Below, piece by piece: positions 2,560-58,550 of a DNA stretch of 64,000 bases. A program made the translations under genes and the position numbers. Under the pieces are notes generated by a model that saw only the letters and a program-made list of their open reading frames with translations, made no database searches and had not been told where the DNA came from. This DNA is from Patescibacteria group bacterium (GTDB taxonomy: Bacteria > Patescibacteriota > Patescibacteriia > UBA9934 > GWF2-40-263). Each line of letters opens with the position of its first letter. Position 1 is the first letter of the stretch. Location of the stretch: assembly GCA_041661745.1 (NCBI GenBank), contig JBAZTR010000004.1, forward strand, positions 76,999 to 140,998. The letters run 5' to 3'.

Positions 2560-2570
2560 AAGTCAATAAA

Positions 2571-2596
2571 AACTCCGCGAAAGCGGAGTTTTTTGT
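2571..2596 (+). terminator. Rho-independent terminator after rplA
   Basis: aactccgcgaaagcggagtt followed by a T-run. Confidence 0.7.
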
Positions 2597-2665: not shown

Positions 2666-3496
2666 ATGAACCAGTTCGATCAACAATATAAAGCCGCCGT
2701 GCAACGAATCATGAACGAAGGGATTGATGAATACAACGAACGCACCGGCCACACTTGCAAGGTTATACCTGGTCTGACTTTTGAGTTAGATCAGGGTTTT
2801 CCGCTTTTAACCTTGAGAAAAATTCCCTTAAAAATTTTTATTGCCGAACAAATTTGGTACATCATGGGCAGCAAAAACCCCGACGACTTTGTAAACAAGT
2901 TTACAAAAATTTGGAAAGATTTCACCGAAGAAGACGGCACTGTGGCCGCCGCTTATGGTAATCGTTGGCGTCATGCTTTTGGTCGCGACCAACTAGGTAT
3001 GCTTGTTGATCATTTAAAAAAACAACCGGGCTCGCGCCACGGAGTGGTCGTAACTTGGGATCCGCGCGAGGACGGCCTGGGCAATCCGCAATCAAAAAAA
3101 AATGTTCCTTGCCCTTTCACTTGGACGGCCAATATTATTGGCAATAAACTTCATGTTCACAATGTTGTCCGTTCCAATGATATTATGCTCGGCTGTCCAC
3201 ATGATGTGGCCGGATTTTATTTACTGCTATGCATCCTGGCGGCCAAGTTGGGGGTCAAACCCGGAAAACTGACACACACAATTTCCAACGCCCATATTTA
3301 CGACACTCATTTTAAACAAGCGTGGGAATTACTAGAACGAAGCAATGAGCACGCTCCGATTCACTTCGAAGGGCAAGTCGACTATTATGACCGAGCCGAG
3401 AAAGGCGACGAAACCCTGGTTGAAGAAATTTTGGAAATTTTAAAAAAACAGTATAATCCCTTGCCACAAATAACCGGCATGGAAATTGTTTTGTAA
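2666..3496 (+). CDS. thymidylate synthase (ThyA) superfamily enzyme with Asp at the base-specificity position; possible dCMP-directed methylase or hydroxymethylase
   Basis: Aligns by eye with E. coli ThyA: ERTGHTC / DRTGTGT; AAYGNRWRHA / PVYGKQWRAW; QPGSRHGVVVTWD / DPDSRRIIVSAWN; active-site VPCPF / APCHAF; RSNDIMLGCPHDVAGFY / RSCDVFLGLPFNIASY; NAHIY / DTHLY. ThyA Asn177 (FNIASY) aligns to Asp (HDVAGFY). Confidence 0.75.
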   Translation: MNQFDQQYKAAVQRIMNEGIDEYNERTGHTCKVIPGLTFELDQGFPLLTLRKIPLKIFIAEQIWYIMGSKNPDDFVNKFTKIWKDFTEEDGTVAAAYGNRWRHAFGRDQLGMLVDHLKKQPGSRHGVVVTWDPREDGLGNPQSKKNVPCPFTWTANIIGNKLHVHNVVRSNDIMLGCPHDVAGFYLLLCILAAKLGVKPGKLTHTISNAHIYDTHFKQAWELLERSNEHAPIHFEGQVDYYDRAEKGDETLVEEILEILKKQYNPLPQITGMEIVL

Positions 3497-4157
3497 ACCT
3501 ATGGCTATCCTTACAAAAAAAGAAATTAGCGAACGTATCACGGCTGGACAAATCGTCTTTTCTCCCAATCTCGACGCCTATCAAATTCAACCCAACTCGG
3601 TCGATCTGCGCGTCGGATGGACCTTTTATATCCCAGAAACCTGGAGATACAACGAAGAAGGCCGAGTTGCCATCCGCCCCAACTATTTGGAATATCAAAA
3701 GACCGAGGAATATTTTAAAATGATTCGTTTAAAACCTGGGCAATTTTTTGAAATTCTGCCAAACGAATTTGTAATTATTTCAACCTTAGAAAATATTAAT
3801 CTGAATTGTGGTGATCTTAACGCCACTCTGCACCCGCGCAGTTCCATAATTCGCCGCGGTCTGCAAATTCAAACCGGTGTGGTTGATTGTCGATACCAAG
3901 GCCAGTTAATGATTCCGATTTTTAATACCAGTAACCAAATCATGAAAATTTATCCCGGCGAAAGATTTTGTCAATTACAATTCTCGCTTTTGGCTTCAGA
4001 ATTGGATCTCGAGGCTGCAAAAAAACATGGTGTTGATGAAGGTAAATACATAAAATCAACCCCTTACAGTCTGGAGGCCAAAACCGATCCCCACGAAGAG
4101 GTTGATTTAATAAAAGCTGGGAAACTTGATGAGTTAAAAGAAAAATTTAAGGTTTAA
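3486..4157 (+). CDS. dCTP deaminase / dUTPase-fold protein (Dcd-like)
   Basis: ILTKKEI...QIQPNSVDLRVG, ATLHPRSSIIRRGL and GVVDCRYQGQL resemble dCTP deaminase family motifs. Overlaps the upstream gene by 11 nt, so operonic. Confidence 0.65.
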   Translation: MFCKPMAILTKKEISERITAGQIVFSPNLDAYQIQPNSVDLRVGWTFYIPETWRYNEEGRVAIRPNYLEYQKTEEYFKMIRLKPGQFFEILPNEFVIISTLENINLNCGDLNATLHPRSSIIRRGLQIQTGVVDCRYQGQLMIPIFNTSNQIMKIYPGERFCQLQFSLLASELDLEAAKKHGVDEGKYIKSTPYSLEAKTDPHEEVDLIKAGKLDELKEKFKV

Positions 4158-4158
4158 T

Positions 4159-4650
4159 ATGGGTGACCAAAAAATTGCTTATCCTTACTTACCGGCTGGC
4201 CGCGAAATTATTCTTGTCCCATTGGAAAACCCTTTCATGCAAGCCGCGAAAAAAATCCAGGAAGAATTGTCGAATGATCTTCTCAATCCCACCGGCGCGG
4301 TGGTGGTTAAAGACGGAATAATCATCGGCTGCGCCGCCAACCACGCCAATTTACCTTTTAAAAGTTGGCAATTGTTTCATAAAAATACCTTCTGTGTCCG
4401 TCGTTTTTTTAAGATTAAAACCGGCACAAAATATTGGGCCTGCCCGGGTTGCGCGAAAAACAAAGACCACGCCGAAGCCCGCGCCGCCAGAGACGCAGCG
4501 CAAAAAAACGGCGATATTACCGGGGCCGATCTTTATCTTTACGGCCACTGGTGGTGTTGTGAGCCTTGTTGGAACGAAATGATTAAGCATGGGATTAAAA
4601 ACGTTTATATCTTGGAAAACGGCGTAGAAATTTTCGCCAGAAAAAAATAA
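4159..4650 (+). CDS. cytidine/deoxycytidylate deaminase-family zinc enzyme (dCMP deaminase-like)
   Basis: HAE...(25 residues)...CCEPC zinc-binding signature (HAEARAARDA ... HWWCCEPCWNEM). Confidence 0.65.
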   Translation: MGDQKIAYPYLPAGREIILVPLENPFMQAAKKIQEELSNDLLNPTGAVVVKDGIIIGCAANHANLPFKSWQLFHKNTFCVRRFFKIKTGTKYWACPGCAKNKDHAEARAARDAAQKNGDITGADLYLYGHWWCCEPCWNEMIKHGIKNVYILENGVEIFARKK

Positions 4651-4655
4651 AAATT

Positions 4656-5237
4656 ATGAGCAATAAATTAGTGGCCATTGTCGGTATGTGTGGCAGTGGC
4701 AAAAGTGTTTTAGCCGATGCTTTAGTAGCCGAGGGTTACGGGTACCTCCGCTTCGGACAAATTGTCCTTGATGAAGTAAAACGCCGTGGCCTTCCACCCA
4801 CCGAACCTTTGGAGCGAGAAATCCGCGAGAACTTCCGCAAAGAACACGGTATGGGGGCCTTTGCTATTTTAAACATTCCTAAATTCGACGAGCTGTTGAA
4901 AAACGGAAATACGGTCGGTGATGGCATGTACAGCTGGGACGAATACAAAATTCTAAGGGAACGTTATGGTAAAAATTTCATAACCGTAGCTATTTACGCT
5001 CCGCCTCAAATGCGTTATGAACGATTAGAAAAACGCTTCTCTGATGCTAACGACACTGATTTGCGCAATCGTGGTTTTTCACGCGAAGCGGCCGCGGCTC
5101 GCGACCAAGCTGAAATCGAAAACAGCGCAAAAGGTGGACCGATTGCCATGGCCGATTACACTATTGTGAACGCCGGAACGGTCGAAGAATATCAGGAACA
5201 AATCAAAAAAGTTATTGAGTGGTTAAAAACAAAATAA
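4656..5237 (+). CDS. P-loop nucleoside/nucleotide kinase-like protein
   Basis: Walker A VAIVGMCGSGKSV at the N-terminus; about 190 aa; embedded in the nucleotide-metabolism cluster. Confidence 0.45.
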   Translation: MSNKLVAIVGMCGSGKSVLADALVAEGYGYLRFGQIVLDEVKRRGLPPTEPLEREIRENFRKEHGMGAFAILNIPKFDELLKNGNTVGDGMYSWDEYKILRERYGKNFITVAIYAPPQMRYERLEKRFSDANDTDLRNRGFSREAAAARDQAEIENSAKGGPIAMADYTIVNAGTVEEYQEQIKKVIEWLKTK

Positions 5238-5244
5238 TCGCCAT

Positions 5245-5715
5245 ATGCTTACTCTCATCGCCGCGGTGGCAAAAAATAATGTCATTGGAAAAAACAACGA
5301 GCTGCCCTGGCATCTTCCTGAAGATCTTAAACATTTTAAGACTTTAACCACCGGTAACACGGTTTTAATGGGTCGCAAAACTTTCGAATCAATCGTCACA
5401 CGACTTGGCAAGCCATTACCTGATCGAAAAAATATTGTCATTACTCGCCAAGAAAACTATCCGGCTCCGGAAGGCATCTTGATTTATCGGGACATTGAAA
5501 CAGCGCTAAAAAATCACTCTGGCGAACAGGTTTTTGTTATCGGCGGGGCGGAAATGTACCGACAAACAATTGAACGAGCCGATCGACTGGAGATTACTCA
5601 CGTTGACCAGGAGGTTGAAGGCGACGCGACTTTTCCTTCCATTGATTTAAACATCTGGAAAAAGGCTAGTGAGGAATCGCATGATGGTTATTCTTTCGCA
5701 ACCTACATGAAATAA
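5245..5715 (+). CDS. folA: dihydrofolate reductase
   Basis: MLTLIAAVAKNNVIGKNNELPWHLPEDLKHFKTLTTGNTVLMGRKTFESI...VIGGAEMY is the canonical DHFR signature. Confidence 0.85.
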   Translation: MLTLIAAVAKNNVIGKNNELPWHLPEDLKHFKTLTTGNTVLMGRKTFESIVTRLGKPLPDRKNIVITRQENYPAPEGILIYRDIETALKNHSGEQVFVIGGAEMYRQTIERADRLEITHVDQEVEGDATFPSIDLNIWKKASEESHDGYSFATYMK

Positions 5716-5729
5716 TAAACAAAAACCAC

Positions 5730-5757
5730 CCAGCCAAGCTGGGTGGTTTTTAATTTA
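5730..5757. terminator. bidirectional terminator between folA and the convergent cupin gene
   Basis: aaccacccagccaagctgggtggtt hairpin flanked by A-run and T-run. Confidence 0.65.
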
Positions 5758-5763
5758 TCGAAA

Positions 5764-6162
5764 TTATTCCGTGGTCACGCCATCAAAGTCCGGGCTATCG
5801 GCCTCGGCTTCGGCCTTGGTGGCCCGAACCACGCCGTCTTTGTGATGAGCCGGGGAGTAAATGGTGTAAAGTTTCAAATCTTCGGTTTCCGAAACATTAA
5901 TGATGTTGTGCTCGGCGCCGGCTGGGACGATGATAACCGAACCATCGGTGAGCATATATTCGTTTCCGTCGATAAGGCACTTACCTTGTCCGGACTCAAA
6001 ACGGAAAAACTGATCATTGTCGGTATGCACTTCCATACCGATTTCCTCTAACGGTTTTAGGGACATTAGAACCAACTGGCAATGTTTACCGGTGTACAAC
6101 ACCTTGCGAAAATTAGCGTTTTCCAGGGTGTCTTTTTCGATGTTAGTATTAAAGCCTTTCAT
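5764..6162 (-). CDS. cupin-domain protein
   Basis: Small beta-barrel signature (G..VIIVPAGAEHNIINVSE) of about 130 aa. Confidence 0.45.
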   Translation of the reverse strand: MKGFNTNIEKDTLENANFRKVLYTGKHCQLVLMSLKPLEEIGMEVHTDNDQFFRFESGQGKCLIDGNEYMLTDGSVIIVPAGAEHNIINVSETEDLKLYTIYSPAHHKDGVVRATKAEAEADSPDFDGVTTE

Positions 6163-6176
6163 AAGAAAAAGATTAA

Positions 6177-6686
6177 TTATTTAAAATGTTTTAACATGAA
6201 ATCGGGCATGAACTTATTTTTGATGTAAAAATTCTGAACTGACTTAGGAAGTGTTTTAAACTGATTAATTATTCCTCGACAATTCTTTGCCCCACAACGG
6301 CATTTACACGTCCATAAGGCCCCGCCGGTTTCTTCGATTCTCTTCTTGTTATCGTTCATTGTAGTTGAATAGTCGAAAGTAATCTCGTCGCCGATTTTTA
6401 TGTTTTTAAGGGCGACTAATTCATTGCGACCTCTAATAAAAGCATTGGGGCCACAAGAATGATTAAAGGTTCTCGGCAACTCGTCTAAATCCAAATATTG
6501 GTCGTCATCAACCCCCAAAGGATCGGACGAAGCCTCTAGGCCGTTGTCGACGTTCTCAATCATTTCATCCAAAGTACAAGGTACACCGGTTAGGAAAATA
6601 ATTGTTTCACCTTTTTTAAACTTCTTCAAGGCAAAAACGCCATTAGTAGAAATTCCGGATTTTTTTATTTCCAGTGAATCAATCAT
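6177..6686 (-). CDS. SET-domain protein (putative lysine methyltransferase)
   Basis: FNHSCGPNA (the NHSCxPN motif), ELVALKNIKIGDEITFDY, and a C-terminal post-SET Cys cluster CKCRCGAKNCRG. Confidence 0.6.
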   Translation of the reverse strand: MIDSLEIKKSGISTNGVFALKKFKKGETIIFLTGVPCTLDEMIENVDNGLEASSDPLGVDDDQYLDLDELPRTFNHSCGPNAFIRGRNELVALKNIKIGDEITFDYSTTMNDNKKRIEETGGALWTCKCRCGAKNCRGIINQFKTLPKSVQNFYIKNKFMPDFMLKHFK

Positions 6687-6985: not shown

Positions 6986-7209
6986 AGAAAAAGGTTAATT
7001 ATCTTTTTATTCATCTAGGTTTAGAGTAACGGTATTTTCGTCTTTTAGCAAGTCTGACAGTTCCACTTACTGGTTCGCATAATACACCGCGTTTACTTGA
7101 TTTGTGTCAAAAAATTAGATTTATTCCTTTTCTTTTTAATGTTAGTCGGTTGTTTTAAAAAATTTTCAAATTTATTTCATTATACACATGTCCGGGAAAT
7201 TGGGCGATA

Positions 7210-7238
7210 TTGACTCTTTCTGTTGAAAAGGGTATATT
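7210..7238 (+). promoter_or_regulatory. sigma70-type promoter (TTGACT-17-TATATT) for the GC-rich orphan gene
   Basis: TTGACT at 7210-7215, 17-nt spacer, TATATT at 7233-7238. Followed by a 5'UTR hairpin gtcgactttcgac and a GGAG ribosome-binding site. Confidence 0.55.
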
Positions 7239-7299
7239 CTAGCGTCGACTTTCGACCCACACGGCAAGGCAAGCCGGCCCACTAATCGGAGAAGATTCC

Positions 7300-7650
7300 A
7301 TGGCAAAGGAAGCCAGCGATCTCGCCAATCGGTCGGACATTGATGGTTCACCCGTCAAACTTGCGATCGACTTCACGGACAACTGTGATGGCGAACCCGA
7401 TCGCCGAAGGGTCCTCTTGTTGTTCGTCGACAAGGGCGGAGTCCGTGCAAAGCTAATCAAATGTCATCGTGGCGAAACGGAGTATGGTCAAGGTCTCGAT
7501 CTTCGACCGACTTATTTCGCTTCGGTAGATTTCGGGGACTTCTTTACCCATTTCGCGGAAGAGGTCCTCAGAATCGATGCAAGTCAACTCCTGACACTGA
7601 TCGATCGCTATTCCCGTTCCCTCCATCACGACCGACCGACCGATACGTAA
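7300..7650 (+). CDS. hypothetical protein on a small GC-rich islet (own promoter and terminator)
   Basis: 116-aa ORF with an RBS (cggagaag) 9 nt upstream. Composition is noticeably more GC-rich than the flanks. No recognisable motif. Confidence 0.4.
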   Translation: MAKEASDLANRSDIDGSPVKLAIDFTDNCDGEPDRRRVLLLFVDKGGVRAKLIKCHRGETEYGQGLDLRPTYFASVDFGDFFTHFAEEVLRIDASQLLTLIDRYSRSLHHDRPTDT

Positions 7651-7655
7651 AACGT

Positions 7656-7709
7656 GCCGCCTACCACGAGCTGCTTACCAACTCAGCTCGGTGGGCGGCT
7701 TTTCTTTTT
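7656..7709 (+). terminator. strong Rho-independent terminator
   Basis: Stem of 16-18 bp, gccgcctaccacgagctg / cagctcggtgggcggc, followed by TTTTCTTTTT. Confidence 0.75.
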
Positions 7710-7952
7710 AACGCGTTTAAACTTTGTATTTTCGAGGTGGAAGAAAATTTTAATTTTTTTAAAGACAATTAGGACGTTAGCCCTAAAAGAAAAAATATTT
7801 CAGCTAAATGTTTCTTATACAAAGGCTTCTCGCATAAGATGTGGGAAGGTGGTAAAAAAACTAAATGTGATATACTTCCAACCAAGGAAACTATACCAAA
7901 TTTTGGCCTTTATACAAGGTGTTTTGGTAAAATTAAGATTAAAGAATTATCT

Positions 7953-8378
7953 ATGCAAATCCTCTTTAAACGACTCTCCCCCGAGGTACCAGTCCCGGAA
8001 TACAAAACCGCCGGGGCTGTGGCTTTTGACCTAGCCGTGCCGCAAGGCGGAGTTATTCAACCTGGCGAAACCAAGTTCTTTCCGACCGGTTTGGTCATAA
8101 AAGTCCCGGAAGGCCATGTCCTTTTGGTTGCCCCGCGCTCTTCCAATGCCAAAAAACAGATCCGTATGGGCAACGGTATTGGCCTTATCGATCAGGACTA
8201 CTGCGGCCCGACCGATGAACTTAAACTTGCTCTACACAACTTTGGCCAAACTCCCTATACTGTGGAAAACGGCGAGCGTATTGCCCAAGCCATGATTGTG
8301 CCGGTTCTTAAGGGCGAATTTATCGAAGTGGACGAAATGGCAGCTCCTGACCGCGGTGGCTTCGGTTCTACCGGATAA
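7953..8378 (+). CDS. dut: dUTP diphosphatase (trimeric dUTPase)
   Basis: Motifs AGAVAFDL, RSSNAKK, GLIDQDYCG, and C-terminal RGGFGSTG. Start chosen at the Met of MQILFKRLSPEVP; the ORF-track 7839 start adds a non-conserved extension. Confidence 0.85.
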   Translation: MQILFKRLSPEVPVPEYKTAGAVAFDLAVPQGGVIQPGETKFFPTGLVIKVPEGHVLLVAPRSSNAKKQIRMGNGIGLIDQDYCGPTDELKLALHNFGQTPYTVENGERIAQAMIVPVLKGEFIEVDEMAAPDRGGFGSTG

Positions 8379-8398: not shown

Positions 8399-9121
8399 AT
8401 GGCCGAAGGAAGTCGCGGTAAATTTATCATGATTGACGGCATTGCCGGTTCTGGCAAATCAACCATTTTGCGCGCCGCTAAAGAATGGGCCAAGGCTCGC
8501 GGGTTAAGAGTTTTTGACTTAACCGAATGGTCAAAAGACCACAAACAACCGCCGGCTTTTGCCGAAGTCGCTGATTACGACATTTATTTTACCTTTGAGC
8601 CAACCAGAACTTGGGTCGGCGATGCTATTCGTTTCGAATTATCGCGCGACGACAAGCCGTACACCGGCGAGGAGTTAGCTCACGCTTTTGCCCTTGATCG
8701 TTCTATCATGTACAAACGGCTGATTACACCGGCTTTGGAAAACGGCAAACACGTTATTCAAGATCGCGGGGTTTCTACTTCAATCGTCTATCAACCAGTA
8801 CAACCCAAATCCATTTCCCTGCGCCGACTGTTAAAACTTCCGGGTAATGCCGCGGCCACGGAATATGCCCCCGACTACATGATTCTTATCGATATTGATG
8901 TAAAAACAGCTATTACCAGAATTCAACAAAGGAGCGACGATTCCAAAGGAGTTTTCCAAGATCCGGTCTTCTTAAAAAAATTAGCTAAACGTTTTCGTTC
9001 GCGTTGGTTTAGTCGACTGTTTACCAAACACGGCGCCTCGGTTCACGCTTTCGATACGCGTGTACCTTTGGAGGTCGTGGTGGAAAAATTTAAATTATTA
9101 TTAGAACAATTATTAAAATAA
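8399..9121 (+). CDS. thymidylate kinase-family protein
   Basis: P-loop IMIDGIAGSGKST, a DRY-like IQDRGVSTSIVYQ motif, and a lid region. Confidence 0.6.
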   Translation: MAEGSRGKFIMIDGIAGSGKSTILRAAKEWAKARGLRVFDLTEWSKDHKQPPAFAEVADYDIYFTFEPTRTWVGDAIRFELSRDDKPYTGEELAHAFALDRSIMYKRLITPALENGKHVIQDRGVSTSIVYQPVQPKSISLRRLLKLPGNAAATEYAPDYMILIDIDVKTAITRIQQRSDDSKGVFQDPVFLKKLAKRFRSRWFSRLFTKHGASVHAFDTRVPLEVVVEKFKLLLEQLLK

Positions 9122-28200: not shown

Positions 28201-29064
28201 ATAAACCGCGATGCGTCCGCCACCCCCTTGACCTGACTGAAAGTAGTTATATGACCCGCCGTCGACATCGACTGTACCCGCTCCAGCGAATGTTCCCACA
28301 TCTAAATAAATTGAACCGCCTGAACCCGGCGAAGCACACCACTCATTCGAGGTAGCACCTGTCGCGGAGATACTCCCGGCAACCGTTAATCCGCCAGCAA
28401 CTGATAATTTTACCGCCCCAGCCCCAGCCCCACCATTACAAACACCTGATCCCCCACTACCAAGATCTGTTGGAGCAGTTATTGAACCGTAGGTTATTCC
28501 GGCTGTACCTCCGTTTCCGGCTCCACCTTCACCGCCATATCCACCCGCACCCCAAGTTGTGCCTTTTCCAGTGCCATACCCTTTTGCATATCCCTTTCCG
28601 TCCACATTCACCGTTCCTGTAATTGTCACGTCTCCCGTTTGTACATCGATGAACACCGTAGCGAGGACAGAACTCGTTGACCCCCCTGTATGCGTAATTG
28701 TTCCGTTTGCCGCAACCGTCAAATTCCCCGCATCAATAATAAGTGCTCCGCCGGAAATGGCGTTATAATCAAAATTAAGAACCGTGGCGTTTGTGCCGCC
28801 AACTGTCAAAGAATTGATTGTTGTCGTCGCGTTGATGGCAATCGTCTCCGCATAATCAATCGTCACATCATCAGCATCAGTTGGCACAGCGTCGCCTGAC
28901 CAGTTGGCTGCGGTTTCCCAATCATTGTTGGCCCCACCACTGTCCCAAGAGACAGCCGCAGCAAGAGTCGGGCTGGCTCTGAAAAACAAGAGAGCAACAA
29001 TAAACAAAAAACTAACCGAAAAAAATCGGTTTATCCAATTAGGATTATTCCTTTTTAGCGCCAT
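22210..29064 (-). CDS. giant secreted/surface protein (2284 aa): signal peptide; three Gly-rich beta-helix-like repeats of about 300 aa; FN3-like and Calx-beta-like domains; tandem C-terminal targeting repeats
   Basis: N-terminal signal peptide (FFSVSFLFIVALLFFRASPTLAAA). Three long internal repeats (GGAGTVYLKDN...TVNGVLTH...). Calx-beta-like segment (ATVTVTMTGG...VDYATSSGTAISGTDFTATSGTLTWAADATGDKTF). The C-terminal repeats resemble those of the M23 peptidase at 61884..63716. Single uninterrupted 6.8-kb ORF. Confidence 0.8.
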   Translation of the reverse strand: MALKRNNPNWINRFFSVSFLFIVALLFFRASPTLAAAVSWDSGGANNDWETAANWSGDAVPTDADDVTIDYAETIAINATTTINSLTVGGTNATVLNFDYNAISGGALIIDAGNLTVAANGTITHTGGSTSSVLATVFIDVQTGDVTITGTVNVDGKGYAKGYGTGKGTTWGAGGYGGEGGAGNGGTAGITYGSITAPTDLGSGGSGVCNGGAGAGAVKLSVAGGLTVAGSISATGATSNEWCASPGSGGSIYLDVGTFAGAGTVDVDGGSYNYFQSGQGGGGRIAVYYDANSYSGTPTAYGGYIASYSYYTGGAGTIYLKDNLDTYGSLTVDNNSHDYTATDRYLGKTNLSSTATYKNLTVSNDGHIDIQSGVTITVDSTLTWTGGNVTDSGGTLATVTSGDVVVPAGSYFYANSAISVTSVTVNGILTHSNNAATAVNKIYITTSGDFTIGATGTINVDERGFGPSEGDGAPSDTSFSAGGSYGGVGGWDMNRTATRGPVYGSITAPVSLGSGSGQTAGKSGGGALRLTVGGELVLTGSISANGQSTATRDYGSGSGGSIYLDATTISGAGTITANGGNQTGSDAWCGLGGGGRIAIYYDTKTYSTTPTAYGGYYPTSSTGYFGGAGTVYIKDNTAGTDSLVIDNNSRDATTDDRNFGKTPLTPTGTPLSLTVNTLTISNDGHLDLNANTTLVASTSLSWTGGNITDSGGSLATVTSGDVIVPAGSYLYANTARTGAGELTSLTVNGVLTHTRNSATAVYRINLETTNDITIGATGSVNVDERGFGPSEGDGAPSDTGFSAGGSYGGVGGWNLTRTATRGPVYGSITAPVSLGSGSGQTAGKSGGGAVQLTAGDELVITGSISANGQSTASRDYGSGSGGSIYLTAVTISGAGTTMTANGGNQTGSDAWCGLGGGGRIALYYNTKTYAGTPTAYGGYYTASSTGYFGGAGTVYLKDNTAGTDSLIIDNNSRDNTTDDRSFGKTPLTPTGTPLSLSVNALTISNDGHLNLTSDTTLTAVALTWTGGNISDNGGTLSTVTTGDVVVPTGARLLANTVRSVSSLTINGTLAHSKNSTAETYKIDYTTSGNATIVAGGSVNVDSLGFTSNSGTGAGHDCGNYGSGAGHAGVGGVTVDGGSTGGIIYDTISSPDSIGSGGGSDYGDGGSGGGAVKLTVGGDLAIGAGITADGGVDYGGDAGGGSGGSIWLNVTGACSGAGGLSADGGRAHGANAGAGAGGYILLVCGTSTYGGAATVAAGTVGYAAGVGTYLTNNAPTITTPTFTEATDGTGEVLGATIVDDSDDNLIQLKIEYSMDGGGTWEDPTLSEDLADVTATYDTPVVENDGTYQIINVTTVSGANTITWIWNSQIDEPAGDISNARFRVTAYDGTSVSSPVSSVDSVLDNVDPVGLADLAVTTYPSSSLTLTWTAVSSETHFDHYELWYGTNSSDVGNRTGTAAEWDNDNDATLATMTTATTTVTSLSQNTTYYVKIWSVDDYGNEATIAATSQKTNGLPTAATVTPTFATDGTGRTTVTVIIDDADDQTSSFKVEYSTNGGGAWGDPTLSTTPADLSGTYGTPAVNNASTYQISDVTTTSGANTISFVWSSATDVPTADVSNARIRITPYDGGEAGSVQGSSDFVMDNADPSGMASLAVTAHPADSLTLTWTAVTSETNFNHYELWYGTNSSDVDGRTGTAAEWDTSDDAALATMTTATTQITSLDDDTTYYVKIWAVDGYNNEVTIASTSETTDLGIPTVNWTSDSQTGAESAGTLTITAQLLFSYALDVTIPYTITGTATATSDYTITASPLVITAGNTTGDITITVVDDVIDELSETVIVTMGSPTNGTKGATDVHTATITDNDAAPTIAIADTSVSESVGNATVTVTMTGGSYLGVTVDYATSSGTAISGTDFTATSGTLTWAADATGDKTFTVAITDEAITEVSETVNLTLSSPTNATISDTTGLITIAANDPRSQPPSTGGGSVSNTINLTSPTDNEQLIAGSFKTITWSSTGTFGFVNLAYSTDNGVTYQTIEDNLTNSGSYYWSIPNQSVTNGFIRIEGTDLASVLTSDIIPFTTLFTETPVEEELPAEEIPTEEEIEEEISVIGMALESVLGDRWVSEAEKNGVWEIFPDLPEEVSIGTLVKLFDDGDPTTQFDSAVYYIGVDERRHAFPNEQVYKSWFSTFYGIKTIDSTTMSNIPLGPMVTYRPGSTLVKFPSITKVYAIDSEGCLRWLTSEELAIDMYGTDWARIVKDVSEAFWSSYCFGDDLVAANDQDWDTVIANY

Positions 29065-45732: not shown

Positions 45733-46395
45733 ATGAACCATCGCTGGCTTACCATTATTGTCACCACTTTTCTTGCGGTAATTGTCTTTTTATTTTTTTG
45801 GATGCGCCTGCAGCCGGTCTGGGAGCCAGAAAGCGATAGCGAAGAAACTACCGCTTTAAATCAACAAACGACAGCTACGCCGACGGTTACTTTTGTTAAT
45901 CCCAAAAAAGGGGCGGCTGAACCCAAAGTGACAGTCGTCCTTTTTAGCGATTTCCAATGTCAGCCTTGCAAAGACATGGCTGATAATCTTGATGTTTTAT
46001 TACGCACTGTACCGGAAGTTCAAGTGGTTTGGAAGGATATGCCAAACGAATCGGCTCATGAATTATCCGTTCCCGCCGCCATAGCCGCTCGGTGTGCTGA
46101 TGACCAAGGAAAATTTTGGGAATATCATGACATGCTTTTTGATCGACAGGTTCTTTTAGACGAATCTATGCTGGTAACCATAGCTTCGGAAGTCGGTTTA
46201 GACACAACAAAATTCCAGACGTGTCTTGATAATCAAGACCCCCTACCGTTAGTCCGAAAGGATTACGAAGAAGCCGTGGCTTTAGCCGTAACAGCCACGC
46301 CAACTATTTTTATTGGTAAAGATCGCACCACCGGCCTTTTATCGGCCGACGAAATCATTGCCGCAGTTAATAAACAACTTTCGACTGAGGAATAA
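45733..46395 (+). CDS. DsbA-like thiol-disulfide oxidoreductase
   Basis: N-terminal TM, then a thioredoxin fold with CxxC (VVLFSDFQCQPCKDMADNL). Confidence 0.7.
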   Translation: MNHRWLTIIVTTFLAVIVFLFFWMRLQPVWEPESDSEETTALNQQTTATPTVTFVNPKKGAAEPKVTVVLFSDFQCQPCKDMADNLDVLLRTVPEVQVVWKDMPNESAHELSVPAAIAARCADDQGKFWEYHDMLFDRQVLLDESMLVTIASEVGLDTTKFQTCLDNQDPLPLVRKDYEEAVALAVTATPTIFIGKDRTTGLLSADEIIAAVNKQLSTEE

Positions 46396-46396
46396 T

Positions 46397-47650
46397 ATGA
46401 AAATGAAATTTTTAATAATTTTATTTCTTTTCTTCCTACCCGTCACCTCGCTAAAAGCGCAAGTTTGCACTTGTTATAATGCGGCCGGTGTTTGTCAGAC
46501 AGATAAAACAACAACCGGCGCAGGAATAGATGACCCCCCTGACTCTGTTAGTTGTGACGATTATTGTACCAGTCAACTTCGTGATGACTTTAGTTATTAT
46601 AAGTTTTCCGACTATGGCGGAGAAGATATACCGAATGAAGTAAGTACTCAAATAAGTTGTGAAACTAACGCCGAAGCAGCCGCGGCCGGAGCTGCCCCTT
46701 CCACACAGACTGCCCCGACCGTAAAAAGAGAATATGTGGCCCCGGTTCTAAGCGTTAATATCCCAACCGTTTCTTTTTCGAAAATCTTCGAAGATAATGG
46801 ATACATTGAGGTCAACTGGCTAAGCGAGTATATCACTGGTCTCTATAAATATCTTTTAACCATCTCGGGAATTTTTGCCGTATTTCTCCTTATGGTTGGC
46901 GGCTTGCAGTATGTTGTTTCCCCCGGCGGTTCAGGCCAGGCCAGTGCAAAAAAAAGAATGACCAATGCCCTGACTGGCATGGTTTTACTTTTTTGCGTGT
47001 ACATGATTCTTTATATTGTCAATCCAAAACTAACGGTTTTTGAAGGGCTATCAATACAAACGATTGATCCAGTACTATACATTCAAAATTCCGGTGACTC
47101 GAACGAAGCCTTGGCTGGTTCAATCACCCCACCAAGTGGCGTGCAATGCACCGGTTCTGGTGATGTGGCCGCGGTAGCCAAGTCGTTTATCGGCAAGGTA
47201 AATTACCGCTATGGTGGAAAAGGTGGGTTGCCCCCTTATGATGCCGATACCAAAACATGTGACGGAAAACCATGTAAAGATTTTTGTCCTGAAGGAACAA
47301 TTTGTCTTGATTGTTCTGGTTTTGTCTCCTATGCTTCAAAATGTGCTGGTCTTCCAGCCGTAAGCGGCGGGACATCAACTATTTTTGCCACTGCGCCAAA
47401 AATTTCTTCTTGTACTGATACGACTGCGGTAACATCAAACGGAACAGTTACTTTATCTCCGGGAGATTTAGTGGGTTTTAAATCCGGTGATTACGCGGAA
47501 TCGCCCTCCTTTGGACATATTTTTATGTATATAGGAAACGGAGAAGTAATTGATAGCTCTGGCAGCGGACGAACCGGCAATCGTGCGGTCTCCACACATA
47601 AATTAACCTGGGCTTGTAGTAAATATCCCTTAAGATTAGTTGATAGATAA
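46397..47650 (+). CDS. secreted Cys-rich protein with a TM hairpin and a C-terminal NlpC/P60 (CHAP-like) peptidoglycan hydrolase domain; possibly a VirB1/PrgK-like cell-wall hydrolase
   Basis: Start at MKMKFL with a GAGGA RBS. Signal peptide; two hydrophobic helices separated by GGSGQ; catalytic Cys motif LDCSGFVSYA and His motif GHIFMYIGNGEVID. Confidence 0.6.
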   Translation: MKMKFLIILFLFFLPVTSLKAQVCTCYNAAGVCQTDKTTTGAGIDDPPDSVSCDDYCTSQLRDDFSYYKFSDYGGEDIPNEVSTQISCETNAEAAAAGAAPSTQTAPTVKREYVAPVLSVNIPTVSFSKIFEDNGYIEVNWLSEYITGLYKYLLTISGIFAVFLLMVGGLQYVVSPGGSGQASAKKRMTNALTGMVLLFCVYMILYIVNPKLTVFEGLSIQTIDPVLYIQNSGDSNEALAGSITPPSGVQCTGSGDVAAVAKSFIGKVNYRYGGKGGLPPYDADTKTCDGKPCKDFCPEGTICLDCSGFVSYASKCAGLPAVSGGTSTIFATAPKISSCTDTTAVTSNGTVTLSPGDLVGFKSGDYAESPSFGHIFMYIGNGEVIDSSGSGRTGNRAVSTHKLTWACSKYPLRLVDR

Positions 47651-51126: not shown

Positions 51127-51143
51127 ATCGAGCTAAGCTCGAT
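51127..51143 (-). terminator. hairpin immediately 3' of tRNA-Arg
   Basis: atcgagctaagctcgat followed on the minus strand by tttttgtt; overlaps the tRNA 3' end. Confidence 0.5.
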
Positions 51144-51219
51144 GGTGCGCCCAGGACGACTCGAACGTCCGACCTTCAGGTCCGCAACCTGACGCTCTAT
51201 CCAGCTGAGCTATGGGCGC
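51143..51219 (-). tRNA. tRNA-Arg, anticodon read as GCG
   Basis: Minus-strand sequence GCGCCCATAGCTCAGCTGGATAGAGCGTCAGGTTGCGGACCTGAAGGTCGGACGTTCGAGTCGTCCTGGGCGCACCA folds as a canonical cloverleaf (7-bp acceptor stem, D and T arms, anticodon loop TTGCGGA). CCA is encoded. Confidence 0.8.
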
Positions 51220-52337: not shown

Positions 52338-52425
52338 TGGCGGAGAGGGTGAGATTCGAACTCACGGTGGCTTGCGCCACACCGGTTTTCAAGACCGGCT
52401 CATTAGACCGCTCTGACACCTCTCC
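52338..52425 (-). tRNA. tRNA-Ser (anticodon TGA)
   Basis: GGAGAGGTGTCAGAGCGGTCTAATGAGCCGGTCTTGAAAACCGGTGTGGCGCAAGCCACCGTGAGTTCGAATCTCACCCTCTCCGCCA has a 3-bp D stem, a long variable arm, anticodon loop CTTGAAA, and encoded CCA. Confidence 0.85.
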
Positions 52426-53729: not shown

Positions 53730-55760
53730 TTAAAGACTGGACATGTTCTGGCGAATTCTTTCCGCTTCGGCTTCACCAGAAGGCGAACCGTCAAGAATTG
53801 GGGCGGCAGGCACCGGCTCTTCGAGCGGCGAGGTTTCTTTCTCCACCGGAGCCGCCTCAATAGCCATTTTGGCTTCAAAATCTTTTCGAGCTTTTTCAAT
53901 TTCTAATAATTGTTGCGGGTTGGTTGTAACTAATTGATCTTCAGTGTAAGAAGCAACAACTTTCATGGCCACATGTTTTTGACCGGCAAAAAAGAGTCCT
54001 TCACCAACACCGGATTCAAGCAAAAGATATTTTTCACCATCGGTTAAATTAAAAGTCTTTTGAATTAGGTCGGCCGAAGCTGCCGATTGCTTTAACAAAA
54101 ATTGCATGGATGAGTTGGTAACAATAGCTTGGCCGTAAGGTGAAAGCAAAAAGTCGTTAACGTCCTGGGTAATGGTGGTAATACCCAAATAATACTTACG
54201 ACAGCGCTTAACCAACGCATGAACAAACTTGGCCGAATCTTCATGGGTCATTAACCACCAGGCCTCGTCAATAATTAAAATACGTTTCTTGCGTTCTGAA
54301 CGAACGGTGTTCCAAATATAATTAATGATGGTGTAAATGGCCATTGGTCTAAGTTCATCTTCCAAATCACGCACAGAAAAAATTACCAATTGGTTGTTCA
54401 TTTCAACCGTGGTCGGCGAATTCAACAAACCGGAAAAAGTTCCGTCGGTATATTTGGTAAGGCGAGCCACTAAGTTATCGGCCCCGGACATCCCCGAAAG
54501 AACATCAATAAAGTCCGACAACACCGGCGGCTCAACCACTGATAAATCAATCGTATCGGCAGTAATATCTTTTTTAGCGTAGGCTTCAAGCAAAGCGCGG
54601 TCTAAAATAGAATCCTCTTCTGGAGTAAAGCCGATGACACCAGCCCCGCCCTGCGGTTGACCAACCATGATCCGCAACAAACCCTTAATGGTAATAATGG
54701 CACTGCGAATAATATCTTCCACTTTGGTTTCTTCACCTTTTGGCCTGGGCAAATCAAAGGGGTTTATTTTGGCTTGGCTGGCCAAAGAAACGTTAACATA
54801 CGTACCGCCAACCGCTTCACACAAATGCTTATACTCCATTTCCGGATCAATGATGATTATATCAACCCCCATCATGAGCGAACGCAAAACCTCCAATTTA
54901 ACCATGTAAGACTTACCAGCTCCGGAAGTCGCAAAAACCACAGCATTGGCGTTTTGCAAACTAAAACGATCAAAAAGAATCAGACTATTGTTGTGACGAT
55001 TAATGCCGTAAAGAATACCGTTATCCGAAGTCAGATCAGAAGAGATGAAAGGAAACGAAGCGGCAATTGGCGAAGTGTTCATGTTGTAGGTAATCATGAG
55101 CTCGTCATTGGCCAAAGGTAAAGTGGAGTTAAAACCTTGTTCGGCTTGGTAAAAACCCTTTTTACTAAAAATTAATTTGCTGCCGAATTCTGATTCAATA
55201 TCCACGGATAATTTATTAAGTTCGTCTAAAGACTTGGCGTAAATTGTAAGGTAAAAAGCAAACTGAAAAAAATGTTCAGTTCCTTGAGTTAAAGCGTCAC
55301 GCAAGGCCTCGATGTCGCGCAAAGCGGTTTCACGAAGTGGATCGCGCGGTTTACCCTTCTCCGCGTCCATGCCCAAACCAGCTTCCAGATAACCGACACG
55401 TTTTTGCAGCTGTTTTAAAATAACCCCGGCTTTGACCGGATAAAAATACATGGCTAAATCAAAAGTCTTATTAAGATTAATAATTGAGGCTGACCAACCA
55501 AGACCGATATAGCGCGGATAAGTAATAACAAAAATGGTCCGAATATAAACTCCGGACAAAACAAGATAATTCGGAGTTACCTGAAACGAAGCCGGCGCAA
55601 TTATGTCATTTACCGTTACCACGCCCCGCCGATAAAGCCGTTCCTCTTCAAGAGTGGCTTTTTCTTCAAGGATTTTTTGCTGTTCCGGCGGCAATGGTTT
55701 GGGAGCTTTCAAATGCCCGTCGGGAGCGATTATTTTTTCTTTTGCCAATTCAATAGCCAT
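53730..55760 (-). CDS. VirB4/TraC/CagE-family type IV secretion ATPase, C-terminal about 75% of the protein
   Basis: Walker A FATSGAGKSY, Walker B RILIIDEAWWLM, and the upstream VirB4 middle-domain motif YIRTIFVITYPRYIGLGWSASIINL...DLAMYFYPV. Confidence 0.8.
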   Translation of the reverse strand: MAIELAKEKIIAPDGHLKAPKPLPPEQQKILEEKATLEEERLYRRGVVTVNDIIAPASFQVTPNYLVLSGVYIRTIFVITYPRYIGLGWSASIINLNKTFDLAMYFYPVKAGVILKQLQKRVGYLEAGLGMDAEKGKPRDPLRETALRDIEALRDALTQGTEHFFQFAFYLTIYAKSLDELNKLSVDIESEFGSKLIFSKKGFYQAEQGFNSTLPLANDELMITYNMNTSPIAASFPFISSDLTSDNGILYGINRHNNSLILFDRFSLQNANAVVFATSGAGKSYMVKLEVLRSLMMGVDIIIIDPEMEYKHLCEAVGGTYVNVSLASQAKINPFDLPRPKGEETKVEDIIRSAIITIKGLLRIMVGQPQGGAGVIGFTPEEDSILDRALLEAYAKKDITADTIDLSVVEPPVLSDFIDVLSGMSGADNLVARLTKYTDGTFSGLLNSPTTVEMNNQLVIFSVRDLEDELRPMAIYTIINYIWNTVRSERKKRILIIDEAWWLMTHEDSAKFVHALVKRCRKYYLGITTITQDVNDFLLSPYGQAIVTNSSMQFLLKQSAASADLIQKTFNLTDGEKYLLLESGVGEGLFFAGQKHVAMKVVASYTEDQLVTTNPQQLLEIEKARKDFEAKMAIEAAPVEKETSPLEEPVPAAPILDGSPSGEAEAERIRQNMSSL

Positions 55761-56891: not shown

Positions 56892-58550
56892 TTAGAATCG
56901 CAACATTCCATTTAAAGAATTAATTGCGTGGACTTCTTCAATGGTCAAAGACGGCTGTTTGGCAACAAGACGCTCCTTGGCAATTACTTCAACCGGCTGA
57001 CCGGCGATTAAAGCGGCCTGACTCATGGCCAAGTACAACTGATTTGTCGGCGAAGAGCGCCAGGCTTTGACCGCGGAAATTTTTTGACCAACTCCCTGCT
57101 CTTCCAAAAGATTAATCTTGTCGTGAATTTTTATAACCGCTTCATCTGGGTCCGAAGACAAGCGACGAAACTCATCAAGCGAAAGATTTTTTAATTCATC
57201 AAGCGGACCGGACAATCGCCGCGACGGCGCGACAATATCAACCATTTGCGGTCGACCGTTATTTGATTGCGGCGGCCTTGAAGCCGATGAAACCACCGGC
57301 GTCACTGGTTTTGGCGGGGCGACTTTTGGCTTGGCCGCTTTAGCTTTTTCAGCGGCAATTTTTTCAGCTTCAACTTTGGCCGCGACTTTGGCTTCGTTTG
57401 CCACTACTTTTCCTTTTTCTATTCTTAGCTTATCAACAATTTGTTGTTCACCGACTATTTTTTCTAATTCTTCCATTACCCGAACCAATGCCGCGCCACT
57501 AATTGCTAAGCCACCTTGATCAATCGGCCGCTCTAAAAGATCACGTGTTTCAAAAGCATCACGAACATCTTTTAAACGAGCCTCCACGGCCCCGACAAAC
57601 TTTTTTTGTACAACCTCATCAAATTTCAAACCGACTTTTTCTTCAAGCTGTTTTACTATTTGTTCAGAGGAAAGCGGTGTACTGACCACCGGGGTTGGTT
57701 TTTCAGTTTTAAGTTCTTCCATTACAAACGGGGCCGCGATTTTCTTTACCTCTCCTTGGCTTTGTACCCCTCTCCCCGACCCTCCCCCTGCTAAGAAAGC
57801 AGATGGGGGAGGGAGTGGTGCCGGACGAACCGGCGGCGCGACTGGAGTAACCGCCGGCACCGGCCGGACGGCTGGCGGTTTGATATCAACCATTTGTCTC
57901 GGCGATACGGGTTTGGCTGGCACGACCACCGGACGGGTTTTAATTAAACCACCGGCTTTGGTTAAAAATCTATCCAATAAATTTTTAGCATCAACCTCGG
58001 TCATGTTTAATCCGCCCACCTTTTCCGAACGAACGAAGGCAGCAAGAGTTTCCTCTTTTGTTCGCGTGCCGTCCATTAATGAATTCAGAATAAAAACCAA
58101 ACGGCTTTGTTCCAATTTATCAGACAAAGCCACACCTAATTCCGCCAAAACTTTTTCCACTGGTTCGGCCGAATCTTTTTCAACAGGATTTGAAGCAGAA
58201 AGACGTGGCACGTTTTTGAAAGCCGCGGGATCGCCACCCCATTCTTTTATTCTTTCTTCAACACTGTTTCCAAAAAAATAAGAAATTGGCAACAAACGGT
58301 TTCCAGCTAAATCAACGGCAATTTTATTCGCAACTTCCCAATCAACGTCGAGTTCAGACAAAATCATCGTCGGGAGAATTTCCAATAAGTCTTCTTCTAA
58401 AGCCACCTGCTCTACCAATCTTAACAAAGTCATTGTTTTTTCTTTAGGCAAACCAAACTTGGCCCCGGTTTTTTCTGCCCACTCTGGCCCGGTGGCGTCA
58501 ACAAGAAAATCCTGGATATTTTCGGGAAGTTCAGAAAAACTTTTCATCAC
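56892..58550 (-). CDS. hypothetical protein with a Pro-rich low-complexity core
   Basis: 552 aa with a PVxP/AxP repeat region in the middle; located inside the T4SS-like cluster. Confidence 0.4.
   Translation of the reverse strand: MMKSFSELPENIQDFLVDATGPEWAEKTGAKFGLPKEKTMTLLRLVEQVALEEDLLEILPTMILSELDVDWEVANKIAVDLAGNRLLPISYFFGNSVEERIKEWGGDPAAFKNVPRLSASNPVEKDSAEPVEKVLAELGVALSDKLEQSRLVFILNSLMDGTRTKEETLAAFVRSEKVGGLNMTEVDAKNLLDRFLTKAGGLIKTRPVVVPAKPVSPRQMVDIKPPAVRPVPAVTPVAPPVRPAPLPPPSAFLAGGGSGRGVQSQGEVKKIAAPFVMEELKTEKPTPVVSTPLSSEQIVKQLEEKVGLKFDEVVQKKFVGAVEARLKDVRDAFETRDLLERPIDQGGLAISGAALVRVMEELEKIVGEQQIVDKLRIEKGKVVANEAKVAAKVEAEKIAAEKAKAAKPKVAPPKPVTPVVSSASRPPQSNNGRPQMVDIVAPSRRLSGPLDELKNLSLDEFRRLSSDPDEAVIKIHDKINLLEEQGVGQKISAVKAWRSSPTNQLYLAMSQAALIAGQPVEVIAKERLVAKQPSLTIEEVHAINSLNGMLRF

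Follow-up and report, generated by a model that had tools for sequence, protein, structure and literature searches.

The 64,000-nucleotide window analyzed here (assembly GCA_041661745.1, contig JBAZTR010000004.1, positions 76,999 to 140,998) is a stretch of chromosome of a bacterium of the Candidate Phyla Radiation (CPR, Patescibacteria). Close to its start lies a five-gene operon, headed by a gene (2666–3496) that is annotated as thymidylate synthase (TS, ThyA). As judged from sequence and gene context, this operon probably encodes a thymidylate pathway via 5-methyl-deoxycytidine (5-methyl-dC) nucleotides instead of dUMP, in a cellular lineage. We hold this reading, with its predicted substrates, with moderate rather than high confidence. 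The net order of reactions would be methylation and then deamination, as opposed to deamination and then methylation. The textbook cellular routes to thymidylate, ThyA and ThyX, both methylate dUMP. To our knowledge, methylation of dCMP followed by deamination has so far been put forward for only a few phages, those with 5-methylcytosine (5mC) genomes.

The ThyA-fold enzyme and its active site

The product of the first gene (276 amino acids) is identical to a protein from a metagenome-assembled genome at NCBI, 'thymidylate synthase [Patescibacteria group bacterium]'. It matched the Pfam family Thymidylat_synt (PF00303) with 176 bits and TIGR03284 with 120.9 bits, just over the cut-off of 108.35. 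Annotation pipelines name it thymidylate synthase because these matches pass. An AlphaFold2 model had a mean predicted local distance difference test score (pLDDT) of 84.8, and its top Foldseek matches were all thymidylate synthases, at template modeling (TM) scores of ~0.7. Foldseek gave whole-chain scores, and the residue equivalences were therefore taken from gap-free sequence alignments.

In HMMER alignments to the solved thymidylate synthases 3ix6, 6auj and 4h0r, RSNDIMLGCPHDVAGF stands opposite RSADIFLGVPFNIASY without a gap. A MAFFT alignment with Escherichia coli ThyA agrees, being gap-free from the RSxD motif to the specificity position. Therefore, D180 (codon GAT, 3203–3205) is the equivalent of Asn177 in the E. 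coli enzyme, P150 (3113–3115) of His147, H125 of Arg127, and C149 (3110–3112) of Cys146. Trp83 is also changed, to Phe. The kept residues are Glu58, Tyr94, Arg126, Cys146, Arg166, Asp169, His207 and Tyr209, which are E61, Y97, R124, C149, R169, D172, H210 and Y212 in the window protein. The C-terminus, a conserved, hydrophobic ...IVL tail in the CPR protein, aligns with that of ThyA.

The original prediction, made from the sequence alone, had described retained catalytic residues, an Asp at the Asn177 position, a PCP in place of PCH, and a His for the second Arg of the RR pair. The HMMER and MAFFT alignments bear out all four. A structural check had been proposed as well; it returned thymidylate synthases alone as top structural neighbors, and the position of the Asp comes from the sequence alignments. 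By its residues, the protein lies outside the dUMP-specific ThyA enzymes (EC 2.1.1.45), with Asn177, His147 and Arg127 gone. It has the sequence features of the dCMP C5-methyltransferase subfamily, and this is its predicted activity.

Conservation and distribution of the Asp-type enzyme

Family positions are given below in E. coli ThyA numbering. Asp177 and Pro147 are invariant among the 120 closest homologues (65–100% identity, 276–280 amino acids), as are the catalytic Cys146 and Glu58, Tyr94, Arg166, Asp169, His207 and Tyr209. Position 127 is His in 104 of these homologues and Gln in 16, and Arg126 is retained. In a wider set, the 150 most similar 50%-identity cluster representatives, Asp177 was found in ~125. 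These share a co-varying signature of Phe83, His or Gln127, a non-His residue (usually Pro) at 147, and Tyr or His176. The canonical signature Trp83/Arg127/His147/Asn177 is confined to the weaker matches of the set.

For a species survey, one genome per GTDB species was used. Relatives were detected in 469 genomes, and the best 80 (55–92% identity) were taken further. Nearly all of these 80 are CPR, and they include Kuenen-, Falkow-, Magasanik-, Jackson-, Harrison-, Doudna-, Uhr-, Shapiro-, Davies-, Woese-, Kaiser- and Nomurabacteria, and Paceibacterota. The Asp/Pro signature was present in all 15 CPR loci, from among the best 80, whose residues were read and which were placed in the tree described below. 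Synteny counts were drawn from the related loci, with a denominator of 87, 81 or 79 depending on the count. In ~24 of 81 related loci the operon adjoins secE-nusG-rplK-rplA. The CPR Asp-type thyA is an old, vertically kept housekeeping gene, and no recent import from phages.

Four contigs with 64–67% GC (loci L055, L063, L066 and L077) are labeled Ktedonobacterales and carry an Asp-type TS at 55–57% identity. Either the Asp-type TS also occurs outside CPR, or the binning of these contigs is wrong.

Relation to phage dCMP methylases

A tblastn search of 50,697 phage genomes gave, as best full-length matches, the ThyA homologues of PaMx74-like Pseudomonas phages (Pamexvirus) and of Xanthomonas phages (e.g. 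Mallos), with 33–36% identity. PaMx74 and Xp12 were reported to have a complete replacement of C by 5mC, and the Xp12 enzyme makes 5-methyl-dCMP (5mdCMP) (10.1101/2024.12.05.627091). Three features unite the CPR and phage enzymes and are missing from E. coli ThyA: the RWR..FGRDQ loop is shortened, WDPxEDGLG..NVPCP is inserted, and YNPxP occurs close to the C-terminus. At positions 83/127/146/147/176/177, the signature reads FHCPHD in CPR and FRCPYD in the phages. A simple neighbor-joining distance tree joins the CPR clade with the viral Asp/Pro clade as its sister group, apart from the canonical His/Asn ThyA. Two fusion proteins were found in the Asp-type clade, one of a dCMP deaminase with TS and the other of a MazG-like PRA-PH domain with TS.

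In phage metagenomes, no positions distinguish enzymes that modify cytosine from those that use dUMP better than 177 and 147 (PMC8670742). PMC8670742 cites Liu & Santi 1992 and Hardy & Nalivaika 1992 for the finding that a bona fide TS becomes a dCMP methylase when this Asn is changed to Asp.

The phage genes form a cassette with the order (NTP pyrophosphatase)-thyA-cd-dihydrofolate reductase (DHFR), where cd is a deaminase gene. Among the closest 45 viral loci, a phage-type cd follows thyA directly in ~40, and a DHFR gene is present in ~30. Of the TS enzymes from such phage cassettes, five out of seven made 5-methyl-deoxycytidine (5mdC). Many linked phage deaminases are 5mC-selective, a selectivity that is polyphyletic within the dCMP-deaminase family, and they are proposed to serve the synthesis of dT nucleotides from 5-methyl-dC nucleotides (10.1101/2024.12.05.627091).

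A prophage or recent-transfer origin of the operon was considered and rejected. Its GC content equals that of the remaining window, its neighbors are ribosomal, tRNA-synthetase and replication genes, and the closest viral relatives of the enzyme are at most 40% identical. An anti-phage defense system was rejected as well. With PADLOC, four of the five proteins (TS, Dcd-like protein, deaminase and FolA) had no match, and the kinase alone resembles a domain of a defense protein.

A Dcd-derived protein without the deaminase glutamate

The second gene encodes a Dcd-like protein, with 102 bits to TIGR02274 (cut-off 92.8). Its closest solved relatives are the bifunctional Dcd:dut enzymes 4xjc and 2qlp. 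A Dcd-like gene is found within 10 kb of the TS gene in 73 of 87 loci. In the Dcd of E. coli, Glu138 activates the water for deamination. A Pro takes the place of this Glu in the window protein (codon 3915–3917) and in 66 of 67 operon copies. These 67 copies conserve the RSS..R motif (Ser111/Arg115, invariant), D128, Y131, G133, N141 and the equivalent of Q157.

With its Glu replaced by Pro, the Dcd-like protein cannot, as far as its sequence tells, be a Dcd-type deaminase; therefore the canonical step from dCTP to dUTP would not be encoded by the operon. The simplest remaining activity is probably the hydrolysis of dCTP to dCMP and pyrophosphate. This predicted step is that of the MazG-type enzymes in the phage cassettes.

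The original prediction had thyA overlapping the Dcd-like gene, which is probably an artefact. The overlap of 11 nucleotides exists only with a start at TTG 3486. The family N-terminus M-x-I-L matches ATG 3501, 4 nucleotides past the thyA stop, and this is probably the true start.

Could the first enzyme be an ordinary thymidylate synthase? It would then methylate dUMP despite Asp180 and Pro150, with the dCMP deaminase and the dUTPase-fold enzyme supplying dUMP and FolA recycling the folate. The enzyme does pass the TIGR03284 cut-off and keeps the catalytic residues except at positions 127, 147 and 177, and every operon gene has a role in the canonical pathway; the CPR literature counts the gene as the thyA of the lineage. 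However, the invariant Asp177/Pro147 pair is the signature of cytosine-directed members, and the enzyme groups with the phage dCMP methylases and not with Asn-type ThyA. The Asn to Asp mutants of bona fide TS, as cited in PMC8670742, switch to dCMP, and the partner with Pro for Glu cannot deaminate dCTP. An ordinary TS is therefore considered unlikely. A literature search found no paper linking CPR thyA to Asp177, dCMP or 5mC.

The zinc deaminase and its possible replacement

The third gene encodes a protein of the dCMP-deaminase family, with the zinc and catalytic motifs H104-A-E106 and C134-x-x-C137. H104, E106, C134 and C137 are invariant among 23 CPR sequences. Taken singly, the deaminase sequence had no match among solved structures and no pairwise similarity to phage cd. 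A profile of the 23 CPR deaminases matched dCMP deaminases best (2hvv at 9.5e-10, then 4p9c, 1vq2 and 2w4l); the solved enzymes matched are those of Streptococcus mutans, cyanophage S-TIM5, T4 and human. A deaminase gene lies within 10 kb of the TS gene in 66 of 87 loci, and the two are linked in 60 of 79.

Fifteen of 62 operon deaminases (e.g. L084:11514-12434 and L062) carry a C-terminal Rcl/DNPH1-like domain, which has the nucleoside 2-deoxyribosyltransferase fold and the motif PSLGxGxE. In one Doudnabacteria operon, this domain is a separate gene (L006:12831-13232), accompanied by a HAD hydrolase. The domain could dispose of dead-end deoxynucleoside monophosphates such as dUMP.

In 10 of 79 related loci (L031, L049, L055, L057, L063, L067, L068, L071, L077 and L080), the Dcd-like gene is followed by a very divergent TS-fold gene of ~340 amino acids (e.g. 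L080:12122-13162), and no zinc deaminase gene is present. This paralogue matches PF00303 at 29.7 bits. It has no catalytic Cys, with VP[VP]YQ where TS has PCH, and retains SRR, Arg166 and Asp169, with Asp at the 177 position. A zinc deaminase occurs in none of the 10 loci with the paralogue, compared to 60 of the 69 loci without it (Fisher p = 6e-8, uncorrected for phylogeny). The Cys-less paralogue may be a non-orthologous replacement of the deaminase step.

FolA, the operon kinase and Tmk

A gene of the DHFR family lies within 5 kb of the Asp-type TS gene in 70 of 81 loci, and a serine hydroxymethyltransferase (SHMT) gene in 13. Together with the conserved TS-like C-terminus, this folA linkage favors a methylase with a reductive step over a hydroxymethylase. 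An enzyme like T4 gp42, a dCMP hydroxymethylase, would make 5-hydroxymethyl-dCMP for a hydroxymethyl modification of the DNA, or 5-hydroxymethyl-dU after deamination. Such an enzyme would release tetrahydrofolate (THF) and need no DHFR. Although gp42 also has Asp at the specificity position, and deaminase and kinase genes adjoin in the window, gp42 lacks the TS-like C-terminal tail of the CPR protein in the alignment (both comparisons use a hand-entered T4 sequence). The closest phage relatives are of the 5mC type, not of the T4 type. A hydroxymethylase is thus highly improbable. The original prediction had left two options, a divergent ThyA in a canonical operon or a cytosine-directed methylase or hydroxymethylase feeding a deaminase. 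Of these, we favor the cytosine-directed C5 enzyme as an alternative route to dTMP, with the hydroxymethylase variant disfavored by the folA linkage and the C-terminus. The downstream genes had been named as Dcd-like, dCMP-deaminase-like, a P-loop kinase and folA, followed by dut and tmk, and the Pfam and NCBIfam matches agree with this.

The operon kinase matches AAA_18, with the archaeal UPF0200/AdkA-like proteins 3lw7 and 3h0k as its best solved relatives. It is similar to the P-loop kinase domain found in the dCTP-deaminase proteins of anti-phage defense (PADLOC dCTPase model, 41.8 bits; NCBIfam NF041025), which hints at an old partnership of kinase and deaminase. By tblastn, it was found in only 8 related loci. 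A tmk gene adjoins the operon in 25 of 87 loci.

The extra kinase bears on another alternative, a phage-style DNA modification. Here, the operon would make 5-methyl-dCTP (5mdCTP), and genomic C would be largely or wholly 5mC before replication, with the deaminase diverting a part to dTTP, as proposed for Xp12. We regard this as quite improbable, and the same holds for its detailed scheme, in which the Dcd-like dCTPase destroys dCTP, the Asp-type TS methylates dCMP, and the resulting 5mdCMP is phosphorylated by the extra kinase. The parts are those of 5mC phages (dCTPase, Asp-type TS, nucleoside monophosphate kinase, deaminase and DHFR), and the window operon does include an additional nucleotide kinase. 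The phage deaminase mSCD-B5 acts on 5mdCTP and not on 5mdCMP (10.1101/2024.12.05.627091), a preference that fits such a scheme. A literature search found no published CPR methylome data that would exclude full 5mC. On the other side, the kinase is missing from most related loci, and the operon-linked Tmk fits a dTMP intermediate. DNA of this kind is unreported, although CPR genomes were sequenced many times, and full replacement demands a strict exclusion of dCTP in a cell that needs long-term genome stability.

Proposed pathway

The thymidylate pathway via 5-methyl-dC nucleotides would begin with the Dcd-derived protein. Having lost the deaminase Glu and kept the dUTPase-superfamily core, it would convert dCTP to dCMP and pyrophosphate. 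Cys149 of the ThyA-fold enzyme would then attack C6 of dCMP, while Asp180 would read and protonate the N3/N4 face of cytosine, where Asn177 of ThyA reads uracil by hydrogen bonds to O4/N3-H. The methylene group of methylene-THF would be transferred and then reduced, giving 5-methyl-dCMP and dihydrofolate, and FolA would regenerate THF; SHMT adjoins in some relatives. The zinc enzyme of the dCMP-deaminase family would deaminate the 5-methyl-dC nucleotide, as a mono- or a triphosphate, and so yield the dT nucleotide. Tmk, the UPF0200-like kinase or both would phosphorylate the product. Every substrate and product of this scheme is predicted, and presumably little 5mdCTP would reach the DNA.

Several points weigh against this reading. 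The specificity of the enzyme is read from two residues and from a clade whose characterized members are 33–40% identical to it. If the enzyme accepts dUMP, the deaminase, the dUTPase-fold protein, folA, dut and tmk also fit the textbook pathway. The CPR deaminase is no orthologue of the phage 5mC deaminases, and its preference for 5-methyl-dC is suggested by association only. A canonical Dut is retained, which implies that dUTP and dUMP form, with no evident use of the dUMP. Nor did the analysis find a means by which 5mdCTP would be kept from entering DNA. Finally, a search for a second thymidylate synthase by tblastn, with hand-entered sequences of E. coli ThyA and of two ThyX proteins as queries, found none; the absence of thyX and of an Asn-type thyA covers this 64-kb window and ~1.2 Mb of related loci, and no whole genome.

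A bolder version goes beyond thymidylate via 5-methyl-dC. In it, 5mdCTP would enter replication, so that 5mC, supplied through the nucleotide pool, would make up much or all of the genomic C; in a weaker form, the route would be the sole one to thymidylate, and a major radiation would live without dUMP methylation. We consider this version improbable.

If the thymidylate pathway via 5-methyl-dC is true, hundreds of CPR species would use it as their housekeeping route, and it would be a third cellular way to thymidylate. The 'thyA' calls on which CPR metabolic reconstructions and folate-dependency arguments draw would then name the wrong reaction. In the bolder version, with 5mdCTP also entering replication, a non-canonical base composition of the DNA in the manner of phages would be seen for the first time in a cellular lineage. 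The operons could also be of use as cellular sources of 5mC-selective deaminases, which are of interest for methylation sequencing, and of a natural Dcd-derived dCTP pyrophosphatase.

Operon boundaries and other features of the window

The five genes of the operon are separated by 1–8 nucleotides, with one hairpin terminator at each end (Table 1). Other genes in the window are secE, nusG, rplK, rplA, gatB, miaA, miaB, thrS, pheST, dnaE, radA and recG. The gap of ~850 nucleotides between the SET-domain gene and dut (6990–7838) contains only short, implausible open reading frames (ORFs), and no Rfam or tRNA match was found in it.

Table 1 Features of the operon and its surroundings, in window coordinates.
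Feature	Position	Strand	Evidence or remarks
Hairpin terminator after rplA, upstream operon boundary	2568..2593	.	11-bp stem, A/T runs either side
ThyA-fold enzyme of the Asp177/Pro147 subfamily, predicted dCMP C5-methyltransferase	2666..3496	+	Family matches, residues, phage relatives, structure model
Dcd-derived dUTPase-fold protein, predicted dCTP (dNTP) pyrophosphatase yielding dCMP	3501..4157	+	TIGR02274, alignments to 4xjc and 2qlp
Divergent zinc dCMP-deaminase-family protein, predicted to convert 5-methyl-dC nucleotide to dT nucleotide	4159..4650	+	PF00383/PF14437, profile matches
P-loop nucleotide kinase, UPF0200/AdkA-like, accessory operon member	4656..5237	+	AAA_18; 3lw7, 3h0k
Dihydrofolate reductase FolA	5245..5715	+	PF00186 at 185.6 bits
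Bidirectional hairpin terminator, end of five-gene operon	5720..5752	.	15-bp stem, 7 GC pairs
Cupin gene, between folA and dut	5764-6162	-	Pfam
Bacterial SET-domain gene, between folA and dut	6177-6686	-	Pfam
Canonical dUTPase Dut	7953..8378 (mechanical ORF from 7839; probable start ATG 7953)	+	NF001862 at 115 bits, cut-off 103
dTMP kinase Tmk	8399..9121	+	TIGR00041 at 101 bits, cut-off 83

Farther along the window, two genes resemble those of type IV secretion systems, one for a pilin/NlpC-P60 protein (46313–47650) and one for a TraG/VirB4-like ATPase (53730–55760). An ORF of 2284 amino acids lies on the minus strand (22210–29064). Several large ORFs, including 56892–58550 and 58560–61316, had no Pfam match. 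Genes for tRNA-Arg (51143–51219) and tRNA-Ser (52338–52425) were detected. In the last 2 kb of the window, the GC content rises up to 0.61, within an M23-peptidase ORF.

Comparison with known systems

Phages provide precedents both for the chemistry and for the logic of combining thyA, deaminase and DHFR. New are the cellular, chromosomal and widely conserved housekeeping setting and, in this role, the probable dCTP pyrophosphatase derived from Dcd and the separate lineage of the deaminase.

The Xp12 and PaMx74 enzymes share with the CPR enzyme the ThyA fold, Asp177, Pro147, the shortened loop, the inserted WDPxEDGLG and YNPxP at the C-terminus, and their cassettes likewise have a deaminase and DHFR directly downstream and an adjoining NTP pyrophosphatase. 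In contrast, the CPR enzyme, 33–40% identical to them, is encoded by a chromosomal housekeeping gene conserved across CPR classes, and has His or Gln at position 127, where the phages have Arg. The CPR deaminase is of another lineage, and the pyrophosphatase is a Dcd-derived dUTPase-fold protein, whereas that of the phages is of the MazG/PRA-PH type.

The 5mC-selective phage deaminases (mSCD-B5 and relatives) are, like the CPR deaminase, members of the dCMP-deaminase family encoded beside an Asp177-type TS. However, two motifs, YPYLPxGR and GHWWCCxPCW, are peculiar to the CPR family.

Compared to the Dcd:dut enzymes, which cleave the alpha-beta phosphate bond, the Dcd-like protein keeps the Ser/Arg motif, Asp128 and the Gln157 equivalent. 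It differs by the loss of the catalytic Glu (Pro in 66 of 67), so that the hydrolase half alone can remain, and its predicted product is dCMP, not dUMP.

The engineered E. coli ThyA N177D and Lactobacillus casei TS N229D have the same one-residue switch on a complete TS catalytic apparatus. The CPR enzyme is natural, with the extra co-varying changes W83F, R127H/Q, H147P and F176H fixed across a large clade.

The T4 pathway of gp56 (dCTPase), gp42 (dCMP hydroxymethylase) and gp1 (dNMP kinase) is alike in going from dCTP to dCMP, then to a C5 modification by an Asp-bearing ThyA homologue, and then to a kinase. T4, however, hydroxymethylates, with no coupling to DHFR, and its product goes into DNA, whereas the deaminase and Tmk of the CPR bacteria point to dTMP as the end product.

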